NCBI GenBank assembly: GCA_963828195.1 | Contig: CAWHDT010000007.1 | Span: forward strand, 160,001-224,000 | Length of the DNA stretch: 64,000 bases | Source of the DNA: Candidatus Bathyarchaeota archaeon | Lineage (GTDB): Archaea > Thermoproteota > Bathyarchaeia > Bathyarchaeales > Bathycorpusculaceae | Reading direction: 5' to 3' | Shown: positions 18,956 through 26,542 of the stretch, in pieces | Position numbering within the stretch: position 1 is the stretch's first letter | Layout of the letters: the number at the start of each line of letters is the position of its first letter | Position numbers and translations under genes: made by a program | Notes under the pieces: generated by a model | The model's database searches: none | Told to the model about the DNA's origin: nothing | Seen by the model: the letters and a program-made list of their open reading frames with translations, nothing else

Positions 18956-20200
18956 TTAAAGGACTTGAGCAGTATTAACTTGTGGCAATAACTTTGATTC
19001 TTCAAGAATCTTCTTGAATTCCTTATCTTTTAGCGATTCTTTTTTACCGTTTGCATAAACAGCTTTAACCTGCTTAACCACTGCTGACAAGGCATCATTG
19101 CTTGGGTAGTTGCCTGTTATTTCGATAATTTTATGTTTGACTATGCTTTTGCCAGATTGTTTGCCTATAGTTAAGTGTCGTACGTTACCAACTAGCTCGG
19201 GAGGATACGGTTCATAAGTCCAAGAGTCATTGAGGACGCCGCACGTGTGGATGCCTGATTCGTGTGCGAAGCCATAGTCACCCACGATGGCTTTGTTAAG
19301 TGGAACGACGAAGCCGGTTGCTTTGCTAATGAAGTCTGCCGCCTGTCTGAGCTTTTGAGTTTTTCCCTCGAATTTTTTGATACCGTGATGCAAGTACAGG
19401 TTGAGGACAACTTTCTCGGTTTCCGCATTACCTGCGCGCTCCCCAATGCCCAAATACGTTGTATTTAGGTAGATTTTGTCCCACACTCCTGACGCTGCAC
19501 GTATGGCTGCCATAGTGTTTCCTAAAGCGTTGCCTAAGTCGTCGTGGGCATGAATCTCCAACGCCTTTATTCGAGTTTCTTTCTTGAGTGCAATCACTTT
19601 AGCGGGAATGCCAATTGGCAAAGGTGCGTCCAACTCGGGAAGCCCTATCCCCACTGTATCACAAACACGGTAACACTCTGCACCAGCATCCGCCGCCGCG
19701 TTAACGAATTTCTTTTCGAAAGCCCAATCCGCACGGGTAGCGTCCTCACCGTGAACAAACGTTCGTAACCCATGAGTTTTAGCGGCATATTCTACCACAT
19801 CCACCACATTAGCTAAGAGTTCATCAGTTGTTTTATCAGGCCACTTTGCCTGCAAATGAATATAAGAAACTGGATGCGAGATGCCAACTTCCTGAAAGTC
19901 CAAGTCGATAGCGCTGTCAATATCTTTTTTGACTGCTCTGCACCAGCCAGCAACTCTGCAATCCAGCTTCATACGGTGGATGAGTTTCGCTGCTTTTTTG
20001 TCGGGTTCTTGATAATGAAACAGTTCGATTCGTTCAGCACCTATTTCGCAAAGCAACTGCGCGATTTTTGCGGCGTCTTTAGGTCTAGTAGCTAAGCCGG
20101 GCATTTGCATGCCATCGCGCAGGGTGGTGTCATCGATAATGGGTTCGGTTTTGAGGGCGGGCATTTTGAAGAAAAAGTCGTTCAGTTCCATGCTCATCAC
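18956..20200 (-). CDS. nifV: Homocitrate synthase-like (DRE-TIM), NifV candidate
   Basis: DTTLRDG, CDTVG, HAHDDLG, GIGERAGNA, HESGIH; last gene of the nif operon. Confidence 0.75.
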   Translation of the reverse strand: MMSMELNDFFFKMPALKTEPIIDDTTLRDGMQMPGLATRPKDAAKIAQLLCEIGAERIELFHYQEPDKKAAKLIHRMKLDCRVAGWCRAVKKDIDSAIDLDFQEVGISHPVSYIHLQAKWPDKTTDELLANVVDVVEYAAKTHGLRTFVHGEDATRADWAFEKKFVNAAADAGAECYRVCDTVGIGLPELDAPLPIGIPAKVIALKKETRIKALEIHAHDDLGNALGNTMAAIRAASGVWDKIYLNTTYLGIGERAGNAETEKVVLNLYLHHGIKKFEGKTQKLRQAADFISKATGFVVPLNKAIVGDYGFAHESGIHTCGVLNDSWTYEPYPPELVGNVRHLTIGKQSGKSIVKHKIIEITGNYPSNDALSAVVKQVKAVYANGKKESLKDKEFKKILEESKLLPQVNTAQVL

Positions 20201-20207
20201 CTTGTGT

Positions 20208-21539
20208 TTATGCGTCTTTAGCGTCCATTATTGTGTTGACCAATGTATCCAGCAGTTGTAAGGAACCTCGGAAGCCAACCATGCTTCGTCTTTGGTAGCC
20301 GAATCGGTCGCTTTGCGGAAAGCCAACTCGAATAAGCGGTATGCCTTCGTCTTTGGAGATGTATTTGCCTTTACAATCGCCGATAATTAAGTCCACACGG
20401 GCTTCTTTGATTTTCTGATGTAGGTCATAGAGGTCGCCGCCAACGATTATATTCTGTTTCTCAGCGTCAACTCCGTACAATGTTGCTAGGGTCTGCATGT
20501 CTTGAGCAAACTGGCTGCCTTCAAGCGTTGTCATCACATGTACTGGCTGCATGCCAAGCTCGTAAACAAAACGGGTGATTCCTTGTACGATGTCGGGGTC
20601 GCCGAACACTGCGACTTTTGTGCCGAAGGTAATTTGGCTTGAATCAACTATGGCGTCAACTAGCAGGTCGCGTTCATCAATTAAAGATTCAGGCATGTTT
20701 TTCCCAGTCAGTGCGGTTAGGTTTGCAATGAAGGTTTCTGTGGATTCAACGCCGATTGGAAGATCCCCAAACTTGGCTGGCATGCTGTATTTTTCCTGCA
20801 GATAGTTTGCTGCGCCTTGCCCTTCATATTTGCAAAGTGGTATTGTTCCCTGCGAGTTTGAGCAGTCAGCAATTTCCTGGACTGTTGTTCCTCCACGGGG
20901 GAAATGTGGTTTAGGAAGACGCAGAGGTGCGTTGAGTGTTTGCGAGATATCGGTGAGGTATAGACCGGGGATGCCCATTTCTGCTAGGATATGTTTGATT
21001 TCTAAGACGTCGCCGGGGTTAAGCATGCCTGGAATAATGTTGACTTTGCCGTTGGGCTCTGTTTTTGGTTCAGCGAGCTGGGTGACGAGTGCTTTTATGG
21101 CATTGTCATATCCGATTACGTGGGTGCCGACGTAGCTGGGCGTGTGTATCCCAACTATTTTTGTGTGGCGCTCGTTGTTTTCGGATTTGAAGGCTTTAAT
21201 TATTCCGTGAATGTCATCGCCTGTTGTTTCGCTAAGGCAGGTGGTGATGACTGTGATTAATTCTGGGTGTTGACGGGCGATTATGTTGGATAATGCCAGT
21301 TTTAGGTTGATTGCGCCTCCAAAGATGGTTGCTTTCTCATGGAGAGAGGTGATGGCAACTTCTATGGGTTCGCGGAAGTGTCGGGACATCAAGTTGCGGG
21401 GATAGGTTGAGCAGCCCTGCGAGCCATGTATAAGCGGTACGCTACCATGAATGCCCAGAGTAGCCCAGATCGCACCGATAGGCTGGCACATACGTGGCGC
21501 GTTTATAGCGACACTTCTTTGTCTGTTAATTAGCACCAT
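20208..21539 (-). CDS. nifK: Nitrogenase component I beta subunit
   Basis: MCQPIGA, HGSQGC, TTCLSETTGDDI, TPSY; ATG at 21539. Confidence 0.88.
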   Translation of the reverse strand: MVLINRQRSVAINAPRMCQPIGAIWATLGIHGSVPLIHGSQGCSTYPRNLMSRHFREPIEVAITSLHEKATIFGGAINLKLALSNIIARQHPELITVITTCLSETTGDDIHGIIKAFKSENNERHTKIVGIHTPSYVGTHVIGYDNAIKALVTQLAEPKTEPNGKVNIIPGMLNPGDVLEIKHILAEMGIPGLYLTDISQTLNAPLRLPKPHFPRGGTTVQEIADCSNSQGTIPLCKYEGQGAANYLQEKYSMPAKFGDLPIGVESTETFIANLTALTGKNMPESLIDERDLLVDAIVDSSQITFGTKVAVFGDPDIVQGITRFVYELGMQPVHVMTTLEGSQFAQDMQTLATLYGVDAEKQNIIVGGDLYDLHQKIKEARVDLIIGDCKGKYISKDEGIPLIRVGFPQSDRFGYQRRSMVGFRGSLQLLDTLVNTIMDAKDA

Positions 21540-21541
21540 AG

Positions 21542-22918
21542 CTAATCTGCATCCCGTGTTCTGATAAACTTCCACGCGGGGCTATAGACTGACTTGTAAA
21601 TGTCTCTTGCAAATCGAACAAAGCCTTTGAAGACCATGTAGCCGCCTTTGCTTTCGTATGTGTGTCCGTTTAGGAAAGGCACGCCGTACTTGTAAGCTAA
21701 ATATTTTTCTTTGGTACCGGAGATGAACAGGTCTGGTTTGTATTTAACCATCATTTCTTCCAGTTCAGGCGCGTTTGGGTTATCAATAAGCAACGTTCCG
21801 TTTTTCACTCGGCTCACGATTTTTTCGTAGTCGTCTTCATGACCAAATGTGGTTGCGACAACGTTGACTTCCATGCCCAGTTCCTCCATAGCTCTAGGCC
21901 AATGCCAACTGCGCGGTCCGCCCTCGTAAATCATCACTTTTTTGCCCTGTAACTTTTCTCTGTAGACATCCATCTCCGATTTAATGTCTGCCATTTCTTT
22001 TGCAATAACTTCTTCGGCTTTTTGTTCTAAGCCAAAAAACTTCGCAACGATCCGCAAGTCATCAGCAGTCTGCCGCATGCCATAGAAGTCCACTTCAACA
22101 TAGGGTGTGCCGTACTTGTCCTTCATCATTTCAGCGATGTACTTGGCTGACCGTGCGCATCTTACAACGTTTAGTTTTGCATGATGCATTTTGGCTATGT
22201 CATGGATGGAAGAGTCACCCGTGAAAGTACACACTACCCGAAGCCCAATGGCTTCCAGCAGCGGCAGTATAAGCCAATCGTCCCCTCTGATGTTGTATTC
22301 TCCGACAAGGTTTATGTCATAAGGCGTCTTGTTCTGGAGTTCTTCTGTGCCTACGACCTTGTTAAACAGAACTTCGTTGCCGACGTGGTGCCCTAGACTT
22401 TGGCTTACGCCGTGAAAGCCTGGGCAGTTGAAAGCTACTACTGGTTTTCCTATGGCGGCGGTTGCACGTTTAGCGACTGCTTCTATGTCGTCACCGATTA
22501 GCCCGGCAACGCATGTTGCGTAAATGAATACTCCTTGTGCGTTTGGGAAAGCCTTGTTTGCTTCAAGTATGGATTCGTAGAGCTTTTTTTCTCCTCCAAA
22601 GACGATGTTTGATTCGCGCAGGTCAGTGGAGAAAACGTTGACCAGCTGGAAGTTTGTGTCTTTTGCAAGGTTTGGTCGTACGTCCCAGGGGTAATAGCAG
22701 CAGCCTATAGGGCCATGTTCCAGTTGAATAACGTCTTTTACAGGTCCACCCACGACACCTCTGCAGCCGGCATAAGTGCAGCCTCGCTCAGTCATGTCGC
22801 CTGGGATGGTTGCTACGTTGCAGGCTGGAATGTGGCATTCGTCTTTGTCATCTTTGATGTAAATGTGTTTTTTTCTGTCTGGGACATGCTTGTCGCATTC
22901 AGGTAAGATAAACGGTAT
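21542..22918 (-). CDS. nifD: Nitrogenase component I alpha subunit (apparent ATA start, ~458 aa)
   Basis: ERGC, [35 protein letters not shown], NGHTY; open frame extends 41 codons upstream of 22795. Confidence 0.88.
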   Translation of the reverse strand: [458 protein letters not shown]

Positions 22919-23818
22919 CTACTTCACCCCAGATTCGCTAGAGCGACCAAAGCCACTGAAATGTGTGCCGCAGGTTTCCTCGCTAGGCACCCCCATGGCG
23001 TCTGCTCTGCATTGGACGCAGTTGTGAAACTGGAATAGCATGCCTTCGCATAGGTGGCGGATTCTTTGAATTTCCTGCAGAGATGGAGCTGGAATATTGG
23101 CGAATTTTGCTTGGGGAATCAGGGGCATAATGTTCATTATGTAAGCGCCCATGTCACGTACGGTTCTGGCTACGTCAACCACATGTTCTGAGTTTATGCC
23201 GGGAATGAATACCGAGTTAACTTTGACGACTATGCCTGCGTCAGCGGCGGCTCGTAATCCGTCGAGTTGTTTTTTGCTAAGGACCTCGAACGCTTTTCTG
23301 CCCATGTACGTCTTGTTTTGGTAGCGAACGAAAGAGTAAATCTGCTCGCCTACCGTGGGGTCTAATGCGTTGATTGTTATTGTGAGGGCTGAAACGCCTA
23401 CCTCTTTTAGTTGGGCAAGTTTTTCTGGTAGCAGCAATCCGTTTGTTGAAACGCAACGGGTTAAATGTGGAAATTCCTTTTTCACTTGTCGAAGAGTATC
23501 AAATGTAACGTCACTGCTAAGGGGGTCGCCTGGGCCAGCAATGCCTACGACACGCAGTCGCGGGTCTTTTTGCACTGCAAACCGCACTCGCTCCATCGCT
23601 TCTTCAGCCGTTATCACTTTGCTTGTAACGCCGGGACGGTTCTCGTTGGCACAGTCGTATTTACGAACACAATAGTTGCAGCCTATGTTACATGTTGATA
23701 CGACGGGAAGATGTACTCTGCCAAACTTGAAATGCGCTCCCGAACCGTAACAAGGATGCTCCTGCACTAGCTGAGAGCAAATCTTTTTGCGTATCTCAGA
23801 TTTTTCATAGCTAACCAT
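22919..23818 (-). CDS. nifB: NifB radical SAM (no NifX domain)
   Basis: HPCY, CNIGCNYC, ENRPG, AGPGDPL, CVQCRADA. Confidence 0.93.
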   Translation of the reverse strand: MVSYEKSEIRKKICSQLVQEHPCYGSGAHFKFGRVHLPVVSTCNIGCNYCVRKYDCANENRPGVTSKVITAEEAMERVRFAVQKDPRLRVVGIAGPGDPLSSDVTFDTLRQVKKEFPHLTRCVSTNGLLLPEKLAQLKEVGVSALTITINALDPTVGEQIYSFVRYQNKTYMGRKAFEVLSKKQLDGLRAAADAGIVVKVNSVFIPGINSEHVVDVARTVRDMGAYIMNIMPLIPQAKFANIPAPSLQEIQRIRHLCEGMLFQFHNCVQCRADAMGVPSEETCGTHFSGFGRSSESGVK

Positions 23819-23828
23819 CTTTTGTCAC

Positions 23829-24659
<831 letters not shown>

Positions 24660-24753
24660 CTATCCATTTTCTTTAAGCGAAAGTTACTTCTATTTTTTTC
24701 AAATTTCTTTCACCTTGATTTTTTTCTACGTTCTTATCCATGTTTCCAAGCAA

Positions 24754-24778
24754 TTTAAAGGTAGTTGTGATTTGTTCA
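24754..24778 (-). promoter_or_regulatory. nifH promoter: conserved upstream motif + TATA
   Basis: Minus strand TGAACAAATCACAACTACCTTTAAA. Confidence 0.75.
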
Positions 24779-25027
24779 GCAAACTTCTGAGTAAGTAACC
24801 AAATATCACAATTACTTTTAGATGTATCGACAATTGTCTTAGTATTTTTATTTTACTTAGACAGTTGTTGTCACCAAAATATCGTTAAAAATAATTCCGC
24901 TGACGATTATCTGCTTAATGTAAGCTAAGGAAATGCGTGTTTATCAAAAAATGAAAAAGTGTAACCGACTCACATTTTCTAGGTTGGCTGAGTGCAAATG
25001 TTTATCTTTGATAAATTTCCCTTTAAT

Positions 25028-25525
25028 TCAGCTTTTACCCCATCTTAAAAGGTATTCCTCAAGAAAAATCATTATAAATTTTTTAGTCAATTCCGATCTT
25101 AAGATCAAGGTAAAATTGTTTTCAGAGATTTTGATTACCTTAAAGAAATTACATACTTCTAGCCTTTTTAATAAGTTTTCAACAGTTACTACCTGGTTCT
25201 TAAGCTGTTCACCATTAGAACGAGCAATTCCTCTATTGCTTCGTCCAGAATATTTCCTGGTTTGCGAAGACTCAATAAAGTCAAGAAATAGAAACCAGTT
25301 TTCTATATCCATTAAAACGTGTTCTCCGTTCAAAAGCAAATCCATGCATGTTGCTACTTTTTCTTTCGGGAATGCTCTGTTTTCATTGTAAGAATTTAGC
25401 GTTCGTCTTATGATTTCACTGTCCGACAGATTTTCTTGTGCAGTGATTTTTTCAAGGAACTTTATCGTCGATTCGCCCAAGGGTGCAGTTATCCTTTTTT
25501 GTTTTTTCAATGCGATCGCCAACAA
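25028..25525 (-). CDS. Ribbon-helix-helix (CopG-like) regulator with C-terminal ligand-binding domain
   Basis: KRITAPL..LSDSEIIRRTL. Confidence 0.7.
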   Translation of the reverse strand: MLAIALKKQKRITAPLGESTIKFLEKITAQENLSDSEIIRRTLNSYNENRAFPKEKVATCMDLLLNGEHVLMDIENWFLFLDFIESSQTRKYSGRSNRGIARSNGEQLKNQVVTVENLLKRLEVCNFFKVIKISENNFTLILRSELTKKFIMIFLEEYLLRWGKS

Positions 25526-25547
25526 CGTTATTTTTCTTTCTCCTCGT

Positions 25548-26006
25548 TTATGCTACACAAAGTGAAGTAGTGTCTTCTTTTATTACTTCAAGGGCTACAC
25601 CAGGAATGATTCTGCGAATGCCATTGATTTTTTGCAACTGCTTTACAAAGGAGGCTAATTCCGAGTTCTCTTTGAATTTTGCCGTTATGACGACATCAAA
25701 ATCTCCTGTTATTTGGTAAACTGATAGGACATTGGTCATCGTTGAAATTGAATTTTTAATAAATTCAACGCGTCCACCAGTTTGAATAAGGATTACTGCG
25801 GTCTGCGTAAAGCCCAACTTTGCAGGATCCAGAACAATGGTGTACTTCTTTAAGATGCCCTGTTTTTGTAAATCTGCCACTCGGTTTATCACAGTGCCTG
25901 GGGCTTTGTTAAGTTTTGTTGAGATCTCGCGGAGGCTTACCCGACTATTTTCTCTTAACATATTTAAGATTTGGATATCTAGCTTATCGATTACTCCTTT
26001 CTTCAG
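25548..26006 (-). CDS. Lrp/AsnC family regulator (likely CTG start)
   Basis: IDKLDIQILNMLRENSRVSLREI, YQITGDFD; in-frame TGA just upstream of CTG at 26006. Confidence 0.88.
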   Translation of the reverse strand: MKKGVIDKLDIQILNMLRENSRVSLREISTKLNKAPGTVINRVADLQKQGILKKYTIVLDPAKLGFTQTAVILIQTGGRVEFIKNSISTMTNVLSVYQITGDFDVVITAKFKENSELASFVKQLQKINGIRRIIPGVALEVIKEDTTSLCVA

Positions 26007-26203
26007 GGCTTGTCACTTCGCTTAATAAATTGTCTTTTTTCTGACTTTTCGTTTCTATTCTTACTATACTTCAATAAATTTACGTCATCCATCATAAACA
26101 AAGATTTTCCAAATCCATAATTGAAATACCTTTTACGCCAAACATTCGTTTAATTTCACTCTCCAAATTGTTACGCTACATACGGCTTTTATACAAGAAA
26201 TGA

Positions 26204-26229
26204 AATATAAACGTAGTTATGATTTGTTC
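26204..26229 (-). promoter_or_regulatory. Lrp-operon promoter with shared motif
   Basis: Minus strand TGAACAAATCATAACTACGTTTATAT. Confidence 0.7.
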
Positions 26230-26308
26230 AGAAACATTCAGAAAATAGCATATTTGTCTTGCATATCTAATTATTATTGAGCATACGTCTTAATTTTATG
26301 AAATTATA

Positions 26309-26333
26309 TGAACAAATCACAACCACCTTTAAA
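26309..26333 (+). promoter_or_regulatory. Rightward promoter with shared motif
   Basis: TGAACAAATCACAACCACCTTTAAA, 24/25 identical to the nifH copy. Confidence 0.75.
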
Positions 26334-26365
26334 TCCTCTCTCAAGCATTTAACTATTAAGAAAAG

Positions 26366-26542
26366 ATGAGTGAGGCGGAAAAATTGGAAACAAAAGAACT
26401 TTGGTGCACATTACCAATAAAAAATAAGACACGCTCAAATCTGAACAGAAGACAGAAATGCCCCGCTTTTTCAGAATTCGCAAGAAGTATTTTATCTAAA
26501 AGTGTTGTTGACGCGGAATTTTGGTACTTCACTCACATATAA
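26366..26542 (+). CDS. Small hypothetical protein (58 aa)
   Basis: MSEAEKLETKELWCTLP...FWYFTHI; ~33 bp downstream of the motif-TATA. Confidence 0.45.
   Translation: MSEAEKLETKELWCTLPIKNKTRSNLNRRQKCPAFSEFARSILSKSVVDAEFWYFTHI

Follow-up and report, generated by a model that had tools for sequence, protein, structure and literature searches.

The DNA analysed here, referred to below as the window, is a stretch of 64,000 nt (G000:C7:160001-224000) from the genome of an uncultured peat Bathyarchaeia archaeon (G000; 2.83 Mb, 9 contigs, 44% G+C, 96% complete). It carries a Mo-type nitrogenase (nif) gene cluster next to an operon for an Lrp/AsnC-family regulator and a ribbon-helix-helix (RHH) family protein, and our subject is a DNA element fused to the TATA box that heads the nif genes, this operon and a divergent small open reading frame (ORF). 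An original prediction, made from the window alone, put these three promoters forward as a candidate new nif regulon. The motif does head nif, and the set of genes behind it is nitrogen-related, but it is not restricted to three promoters: G000 has 19 sites and the motif is found genus-wide, making this an accessory nutrient-scavenging regulon within one Bathyarchaeia genus. Positions without a contig label are window positions; labels of the form G0xx denote genomes of the same genus and L0xx loci of relatives.

The nif locus and its promoter elements

The features of the locus are as follows; matrix scores refer to the weight matrix introduced in the next section.

18956..20200, minus strand: nifV-like gene of the homocitrate/isopropylmalate-synthase family, the last gene of the cluster (Pfam HMGL-like and HCS_D2; nifV model 273 bits, below its cut-off)
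20208..21575, minus strand: nifK-like gene (vnfK and nifK models are the best NCBIfam matches, all below cut-off; Pfam Oxidored_nitro)
21542..22795, minus strand: nifD (TIGR01862, 570 bits, above the cut-off of 486)
22919..23818, minus strand: short, stand-alone nifB-like radical SAM gene (TIGR01290, 322 bits, below the cut-off of 344; Pfam Radical_SAM)
23829..24647, minus strand: nifH (NCBIfam TIGR01287, 433 bits, above the cut-off of 394)
24753..24791, minus strand: nifH promoter element (matrix score 54.5)
25028..25525, minus strand: p165, a 165-aa RHH family paralog (Pfam RHH_1, E 0.0042, 17.4 bits, below cut-off)
25548..25961, minus strand: Lrp137, Lrp/AsnC-family regulator, the first gene of its operon (Pfam AsnC_trans_reg and HTH_24; NCBIfam Lrp matches weak)
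26205..26243, minus strand: Lrp137-p165 operon promoter element, TTCTGAA-N3-TTCTGAACAAATCATAACTAC-G-TTTATAT (matrix score 55.2)
26296..26334, plus strand: small-ORF promoter element, TTATGAA-N3-TATATGAACAAATCACAACCAC-C-TTTAAAT, divergent from the Lrp promoter (matrix score 60.5)
26366..26542, plus strand: 58-aa ORF, divergent from Lrp137-p165 and behind the third copy of the motif (matches no family)

The 18-mer TGAACAAATCAYAACYAC occurs at 24761-24778 (minus strand), 26213-26230 (minus strand) and 26309-26326 (plus strand), followed 1 nt later by TTTAAA or TTTATA. These are the only matches in the window, even when up to three mismatches are allowed, and none of 100 dinucleotide-preserving shuffles of the window reached three matches (mean, 0.19). 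The TATA-fused motif that had been noticed before nifH, the Lrp-RHH pair and the small ORF is therefore real, and the nifH and small-ORF 25-mers are indeed identical at 24 of 25 positions; the middle copy, first placed at 26204-26229, was shifted by 1-2 nt and properly spans 26206-26230. A further (T/A)GAA that had been seen about one helical turn upstream of each copy proved to be the 3′ end of a conserved upstream box (CTCAGAA, TTCTGAA or TTATGAA). In the nifH element, box 1 is CTCAGAA (24791-24785), box 2 TGCTGAA (24781-24775) and box 3 ATCACAA (24771-24765), followed by the bases at the position of the B recognition element (BRE; 24766-24760) and by the TATA box, TTTAAAT (24759-24753); the nifH ATG lies 131 nt from the T of TGAAC. 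The close relative L032 has the same arrangement at its Lrp137-p165 promoter and also keeps the small-ORF element. The small ORF itself has homologues with 86% identity in L032 and 47% in G016, the latter likewise with a motif site.

A logo of 92 distinct sites, which come from G000 and from fetched loci of relatives and are not independent of one another, gave the consensus TTTTCATAA-N3-TTATGAACAAATC-WY-AAYYA-NN-YTTATAT, about 40 bases including the TATA box. Counted from the T of TGAAC, three 7-bp boxes of the TCATAA type occupy positions -13 to -7 (TTCATAA), -3 to +3 (TTATGAA) and +7 to +13 (ATCAYAA); they are exactly 10 bp apart, on one face of the helix, and the inverted middle box creates two overlapping dyads, TCATAA-N3-TTATGA and TTATGA-N5-TCAYAA. 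Six bases, T/G/A/A/C/A, are conserved at 95-98%, and positions 12-13 are AA in every site. The BRE is expected at 12-18, where the promoter-proximal box shares its last two bases (AA) with it, and the TATA box, YTTATAT, follows at 19-25 without any variation in spacing. Upstream of 339 ordinary TTTAWA boxes before G000 genes there was a slight enrichment of A and nothing resembling the motif. The logo and this comparison support reading the motif as the operator part of a composite operator-promoter that is locked to the TATA box, in keeping with the earlier placement of a regulatory site at the BRE position. A start codon with a GGTG-type ribosome site is found at +68 to +70 in 8 of the 19 G000 sites, and small-peptide genes of relatives keep the start-codon spacing seen in G000. 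Such start codons fit a transcription start near +48, which would put the dyad centers near -43 and -53.

The intergenic region between the Lrp gene and the small ORF contains a second palindrome, GACRTAYGTC (26279-26290), ~25 nt 5′ of the motif; it recurs between small-peptide genes and divergent 80-aa Lrp-ligand-domain genes at three small-peptide promoters on C5. An Rfam scan of the window detected two tRNAs only, neither of them near a motif site, and a sigma-70 promoter and terminator scan of the window stayed at chance level, its model being inapplicable to an archaeon.

Among the nif genes, nifH and nifD pass their curated NCBIfam cut-offs, while nifB and nifK fall below theirs. The closest relatives of nifD belong to five other metagenome-assembled Bathyarchaeia (82-96% identity), followed by Bacillota at ~40%. 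A nifHBDK locus from Bathy-6 Bathyarchaeia, without nifE or nifN, is already published; passages of that paper term it the first confident nitrogenase cluster in Bathyarchaeia and credit the class with the first nitrogenase cluster of any archaeon outside the methanogens, and the gene order that they give, nifH-nifB-nifD-nifK, is identical to the one found here (PMC11697101).

Between L032 and the window, the nif proteins are 95-99% identical, Lrp137 74% and p165 67%, so that the two regulators appear to be diverging much faster than the enzymes. The frame of Lrp137 is open for 15 codons 5′ of its ATG (25962-26006, minus strand), as far as a CTG at 26006-26004. In the L034 ortholog the aligned codon is the ATG start, and in L032 it is likewise CTG; when the protein is started at the ATG, the first helix of its DNA-binding domain is lost.

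A regulon within one genus

A 50-nt weight matrix was built from 11 sites and used to scan G000, yielding 19 sites with scores of 18-64 and none between 12 and 18; 8 of the 19 had not been used in building the matrix. Fifteen lie on C5, three in the window and one on C8. A 26-nt pattern with at most one mismatch gave 12 matches in G000 and none for the reversed control. The genes headed by the motif are listed here.

Window: nifHBDK-V; the Lrp137-p165 operon; the 58-aa ORF
G000: glutamine synthetase gene followed by two asparagine-synthetase-like genes (glnA-asnB operon)
C5: two 520-aa APC permease paralogs, each after a 45-codon putative leader ORF
G000: 96-aa Lrp-ligand-domain gene followed by kdpABC
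G000: a second full-length Lrp gene, Lrp159 (159 aa), and a separate 97-aa ligand-domain gene
G000: CobQ-like amidotransferase gene, and several other small ORFs
C5: four copies of a 32-residue membrane peptide gene, one of them upstream of a 926-aa P-type ATPase gene

Most of the sites are held by two partly paralogous islands on C5 (351000-367000 and 934000-950000), which contain permease, kdp, P-type ATPase and glnA-asnB genes together with five stand-alone genes for 80-97-aa Lrp-ligand-domain proteins. The 45-codon ORF before each APC permease (MKKRMESPNV...; C5:357380 and 939662, both minus strand) is conserved, starts 69 nt from the motif and may encode a leader peptide. The start codons of the MFGIIDLASI... 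peptides, which have 32-35 residues and are single-helix membrane peptides, also lie exactly 69 nt from the motif. The four copies in G000 are on C5 (946442; 361270, minus strand; 366502; 940098, minus strand), one of them shortened to 19 codons, and others occur in the relatives L007, L014, L017 and L021. Their genes adjoin those of Kdp or P-type ATPases, which makes it possible that these small peptides associate with the pumps. Another conserved small ORF, MEKNSPKK... (C5:875025, plus strand; also in L015 and other relatives), stands behind the motif variant CTCAAACACCCTTATAT. Its N terminus is similar to that of the GlnA encoded behind the motif (MEKNDSVKK...), and we considered whether this site marks a broken copy of glnA; the presence of the same small ORF in relatives led us to reject this.

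With at most one mismatch, the 26-nt pattern was found in 40 of 61 same-genus genomes, and almost all of the reversed-pattern controls gave zero. At up to two mismatches it was found in 22 of 24 same-genus genomes, compared with 1 of 16 from other families of the order, the single match there being weak. At the nif genes, the nifH upstream regions of all six Bathyarchaeia compared (G000 and L032-L036) have a version of the motif next to the TATA box at the same place, while the sequence around it has diverged; four of these regions share nothing beyond the motif. At scores above 12, the matrix scan picked up sites in four of the relatives' five nif loci, but the one in L035 precedes a small-peptide gene, and the nifH sites of L035 and L036 were recognized by reading the sequence rather than by the matrix.

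Adjacency was recorded in 15 loci of relatives, which had been chosen around motif or Lrp matches, so that the following counts are biased. A site lies directly before Amt-family genes in six of them, before APC permeases in nine and before kdp genes with a ligand-domain leader gene in six; others precede glnA, asnB and a CitMHS-TrkH-amt-amt cluster. Where a relative has only one or two pattern matches, those that we inspected precede genes for small membrane peptides or the MEKN... small ORF.

Candidate binders of the operator

The original prediction named the adjacent Lrp/AsnC or RHH protein as a possible binder, and of these two the evidence favors the RHH family over Lrp. We infer that the likeliest reader of the operator is the RHH protein family represented next to nif, rather than the Lrp protein encoded beside it. 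The p165 protein is a diverged paralog (43% identity) of a 185-aa RHH protein encoded at C7:325509-326063 in G000 contig coordinates, the canonical copy, of which most genomes of the genus have one. About 20 residues at the C-terminal end are missing from p165; in the model of the canonical copy they make up two strands of the sensor sheet. RHH_1 (Pfam) matches 26 of 26 aligned members of the family, and the canonical copy of G000, at 25.9 bits, exceeds the cut-off of 20.5. We found 975 homologs, which carry source annotations as CopG or Arc/MetJ-type regulators. Five sequences in the PDB match at E ≤1, the best being CopG (E 0.012); NikR is not among them. RHH operators are typically short repeated boxes on one face of the helix, as are the three boxes of the element described here.

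The distribution of this protein follows that of the motif. Of the 61 genomes, 38 have both, 2 the motif only, 5 the RHH gene only and 16 neither; the RHH gene is thus present in 38 of 40 motif-bearing genomes, the two exceptions being 92% and 66% complete, and outside the genus it was found in 1 of 16 genomes. Among the five genomes with the RHH gene only, one has internal stops in the gene and only control-level pattern matches, one has a 2-mismatch site right after the RHH gene, and two more have a 2-mismatch and a 3-mismatch site, respectively. On a TruD tree of 56 of the 61 genomes (five with TruD missing or fragmented were left out, and the RHH pseudogene was scored as absent), the distribution of the motif implies no fewer than 10 changes and that of the RHH gene no fewer than 8. 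In six independent pairs on well-supported branches, the RHH gene changed the same way as the motif in 4-5, the opposite way in 0-1 and not at all in 1-2. A motif site also lies downstream of the RHH gene on the same strand in 13 of 30 loci, 46-66 nt after the stop codon in nine of them.

Structure prediction points to self-association and to a probable sensor domain. A four-copy model scored 0.79 for self-association, compared with 0.00 for the best of three controls. This mark was reached by 20 of 30 proteins solved as one-chain pairs and by 1 of 23 single chains, a calibration that applies only roughly here, as four copies and an alignment of our own were used. The runs agreed in at least 93% of contacts, the partner pLDDT was at least 85, and residues 4-13, the N-terminal strand, are part of the predicted interface; the high score may, however, owe something to the resemblance to RHH dimers of solved structure. 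No Pfam family matches the C-terminal 140 residues. In VIA-align comparisons, residues 88-185 resembled the C-terminal subdomain of H-NOX proteins (Z 10.0 and 9.9, rmsd 3.5 and 3.3, 98 aligned residues) and, less closely, TRAPP Bet3-family proteins (Z 7-7.5) and the PoxR sensory domain (Z 5.8). We read the C-terminal domain as a probable small-molecule sensor fold, bearing in mind that a shared fold does not show function.

Several observations weigh against the RHH protein as the binder. G057 has an intact RHH gene and no pattern match even at three mismatches, and G005 has motif sites and no RHH match. The sign test on the independent pairs, which derive from a single-gene tree, gave a median p of 0.0625 and so did not fall below 0.05, and joint loss of a regulator and its accessory targets does not require that the one binds the other. 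In 17 of the 30 RHH loci there is no site within 1.5 kb. Apart from the nif-linked paralog p165, which has the motif by way of its operon, the RHH gene is not preceded by the motif, so that there is no autoregulatory link. The monomer model of the canonical protein is weak overall (mean pLDDT 66.8), although residues 110-180 are well predicted, and a Foldseek search of the PDB with this model gave TM scores of only 0.36-0.44, with designed proteins first.

The principal alternative is that the site is bound by Lrp/AsnC proteins, namely Lrp137, its paralog Lrp159 and their relatives, perhaps as mixed oligomers with the ligand-domain proteins, and that these respond to amino acids such as glutamine. 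The dyads formed by the boxes span 15-17 bp and have an A/T-rich center, which is the general style of Lrp sites. The motif precedes the genes of both Lrp137 and Lrp159, the regulon includes several genes for the ligand domain alone, and an Lrp gene adjoins nifH in three of six nif loci. In 8 of the 15 relatives' loci, an Lrp gene lies less than 200 nt upstream of a motif promoter or is itself behind the motif, although these adjacency counts share the selection bias noted above. There is also a precedent in Sa-Lrp, which is reported to be glutamine-responsive and to bind ammonia-assimilation promoters (PMC3584215). Nevertheless, we consider this reading possible but doubtful. Island-type Lrp genes are missing from 12 of the 40 motif-bearing genomes, which have only the housekeeping type (a distinction drawn with a post hoc threshold of ~81 bits), and the housekeeping type is present in all 61 genomes. 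Because those 12 genomes all carry the RHH gene, and because three groups that differ in their recognition helix can be told apart among the island Lrps (GTVxxR, PNxLHNR and GVMAxAR), the RHH protein is favored. In addition, most island Lrps have their own, different conserved promoters.

Motif autoregulation of the island Lrps as a group was considered separately and rejected, as their upstream regions carry other conserved promoters. In L087, L090, L094 and L095, the PNxLHNR subgroup forms an apparent operon with PhoU_div (DUF47) and PHO4-type phosphate transporter genes, just upstream of a motif-bearing permease promoter.

Signal, mechanism and known systems

The original prediction held that nitrogen control would be independent of NrpR, and the distribution of the canonical regulators supports this. 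The NrpR domain (NRD1_2, PF01995) had no match in G000, while the controls from M. jannaschii and M. acetivorans matched, and it was above cut-off in none of the 61 genomes. P-II had no match in G000 and was found in 4 of the 61 genomes, being absent from 57; two of the four matches lie inside frames of 575-603 aa in genomes without the motif (G018 and G052). Since NrpR is found in none of these genomes and P-II in only four, though some members carry nitrogenase, no partner for a NifI-type switch-off is evident in the genus. The NrpR operator box is GGAA-N6-TTCC, at or after the TATA box. As had been stated, there is no such box near nif: the window has two matches (8161 and 39364), a number equaled or exceeded in 51 of 100 shuffles and thus at chance level.

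Judged from the targets, the signal is most likely fixed-nitrogen status, and the regulator would mediate either ligand-gated repression that is relieved when fixed nitrogen is scarce or activation. The nitrogen label is nevertheless incomplete. The glnA and amt promoters, proposed earlier as places to look for the motif, gave a divided answer: one glnA-asnB operon has it, but the sole amt gene of G000 and two of its three glnA genes do not, one of the latter being 83% identical to the motif-bearing copy. Transporters for K+ and other cations belong to the regulon as well. We rejected glnA as a universal target, as motif-less genomes carry only glutamine synthetases of 38-47% identity and two of the three G000 enzymes have no site.

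These facts lend some credit to a reading in which the element and its RHH binder are as proposed above and the signal is potassium, cation or osmotic status. Among the targets are kdpABC, TrkH, CitMHS and the 926-aa P-type ATPase; the targets conserved most widely are small membrane peptides encoded next to kdp or P-type ATPase genes, and the amt gene of G000 lacks a site. We regard this as unlikely: most of the targets that could be identified are nitrogenase, glnA-asnB, Amt-family genes and amino-acid permeases, and nitrogenase is not something that one would expect potassium to switch on. It is quite improbable that the sites are a special promoter class read by one TFB or TBP paralog without any dedicated regulator. 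G000 does encode three TFB (C1:64266, C9:158160 and C5:309825) and three TBP (C5:76700, 154472 and 769218) proteins, and the motif is fused to the BRE and TATA box at a spacing that is constant in the 92 sites. However, TFB reads roughly 6-7 bp, and here conservation extends ~32 bp upstream of the TATA box over three phased boxes. A single promoter cassette that was multiplied by duplication or by a mobile element and confers no common regulation can be almost wholly discounted. In its favor, several sites fall within duplications (at the four small-peptide genes, the two permease paralogs and another family with three copies), and C5 has the two paralogous islands. Against it, orthologous promoters of diverged species keep the boxes while their flanks diverge, and at ~11 of the 19 sites both the downstream genes and the flanks are unrelated; moreover, variation is restricted to specific positions and the downstream genes are functionally coherent.

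Returning to the RHH protein, we propose a genus-specific nutrient-scavenging regulon whose operator is read by RHH-sensor dimers, their occupancy setting the use of TFB and TBP, a model to which we give about even credence. Dimers of the RHH protein with its C-terminal H-NOX/V4R-like sensor would bind the three phased boxes, and box occupancy would decide whether the promoter is used by TFB and TBP, access that the two-base overlap of the proximal box with the BRE could set. Local Lrp and ligand-domain-only proteins might add amino-acid-specific tuning. As to the sign of regulation, we favor repression, at about even odds; it is suggested by the habit of a family whose members are mostly repressors, by TATA boxes that are near-consensus and conserved, and by the BRE overlap. 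Activation by recruitment of TFB and TBP is a somewhat weaker contender, which draws on the position of the site, wholly upstream of the TATA box at a fixed phase, as with TFB-RF1 and EarA; a site upstream of the BRE and TATA box more often activates in archaea, which sits uneasily with a family made up mostly of repressors. In its most specific form, which we advance tentatively, the proposal is of a nitrogen and potassium scavenging regulon free of P-II and NrpR, including nitrogenase, that would be run by an undescribed one-component regulator combining RHH and H-NOX/V4R-like domains on three phased TCATAA boxes, with the truncated paralog p165 and Lrp137 as nif-specific modulators.

Bathyarchaeia are an abundant and uncultured class, for which these results provide a concrete operator with defined boxes and a set of genes that would be switched together, for N2 fixation, ammonium and amino-acid uptake, and K+ uptake. 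The candidate regulator can be made and tested without culturing the organism, and the operator could allow regulon membership to be read directly from peat and digester metagenomes; Bathy-6 is abundant in pulp-mill digesters. A diazotroph lineage in which neither P-II nor NrpR was found in the genome studied also raises the question of how nitrogen status is sensed.

The nif cluster itself was already published, and the operator, the regulon and the RHH candidate are new as far as we found: the text of the open-access literature (supplements excluded) yielded no mention of them and nothing on gene regulation in Bathyarchaeia, and the matches listed for the 10-mer TGAACAAATC were all unrelated. 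The text of the Bathy-6 paper contains no mention of NrpR or PII, and its passages speak neither of regulation nor of the operator, regulon or RHH candidate described here (PMC11697101).

Methanogen nif genes are controlled by NrpR, NrpA and NifI1,2, and binding of NrpR depends on 2-oxoglutarate, according to passages of PMC9765008. The NrpR system resembles the present one as an archaeal co-regulation of nif and glnA through a promoter-linked operator. In contrast, the genomes examined here have no NrpR domain protein, GGAA-N6-TTCC is absent near nif, G000 lacks P-II, and the site lies upstream of the TATA box. The amino-acid-sensing regulators Sa-Lrp of Sulfolobus acidocaldarius and Lrp of Haloferax mediterranei are reported to act on ammonia-assimilation promoters (PMC3584215 for Sa-Lrp), and Lrp genes sit inside the regulon described here. 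Whereas Sa-Lrp binds AT-rich sites and wraps DNA in the account given in that source, we find a sharply defined element of ~27 bp, and the distribution of Lrp fits the motif less well than does that of the RHH protein.

A promoter site directly upstream of the BRE is a feature shared with TFB-RF1 and EarA. According to the respective papers, TFB-RF1 recruits TFB to promoters with weak BREs (PMC5937170), and dependence on EarA is bypassed by deletion of the BRE (PMC5512572). Both belong to other protein families, and the TATA boxes here are near-consensus and conserved, activation being only a candidate reading for this element. A parallel in protein architecture is found with NikR of E. coli, which, as predicted for the RHH protein described here, is a one-component regulator with an RHH domain and a ligand-binding domain. 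NikR, a tetramer of RHH-plus-sensor chains, binds GTATGA-N16-TCATAC in the passages of PMC7055735, half-sites that are close to the TTATGA and TCATAA found here. However, the NikR half-sites are 16 bp apart and its sensor is a metal-binding domain, whereas the element that we describe has three boxes with a 10-bp period and the predicted sensor of its candidate binder has an H-NOX/V4R/Bet3-like fold.

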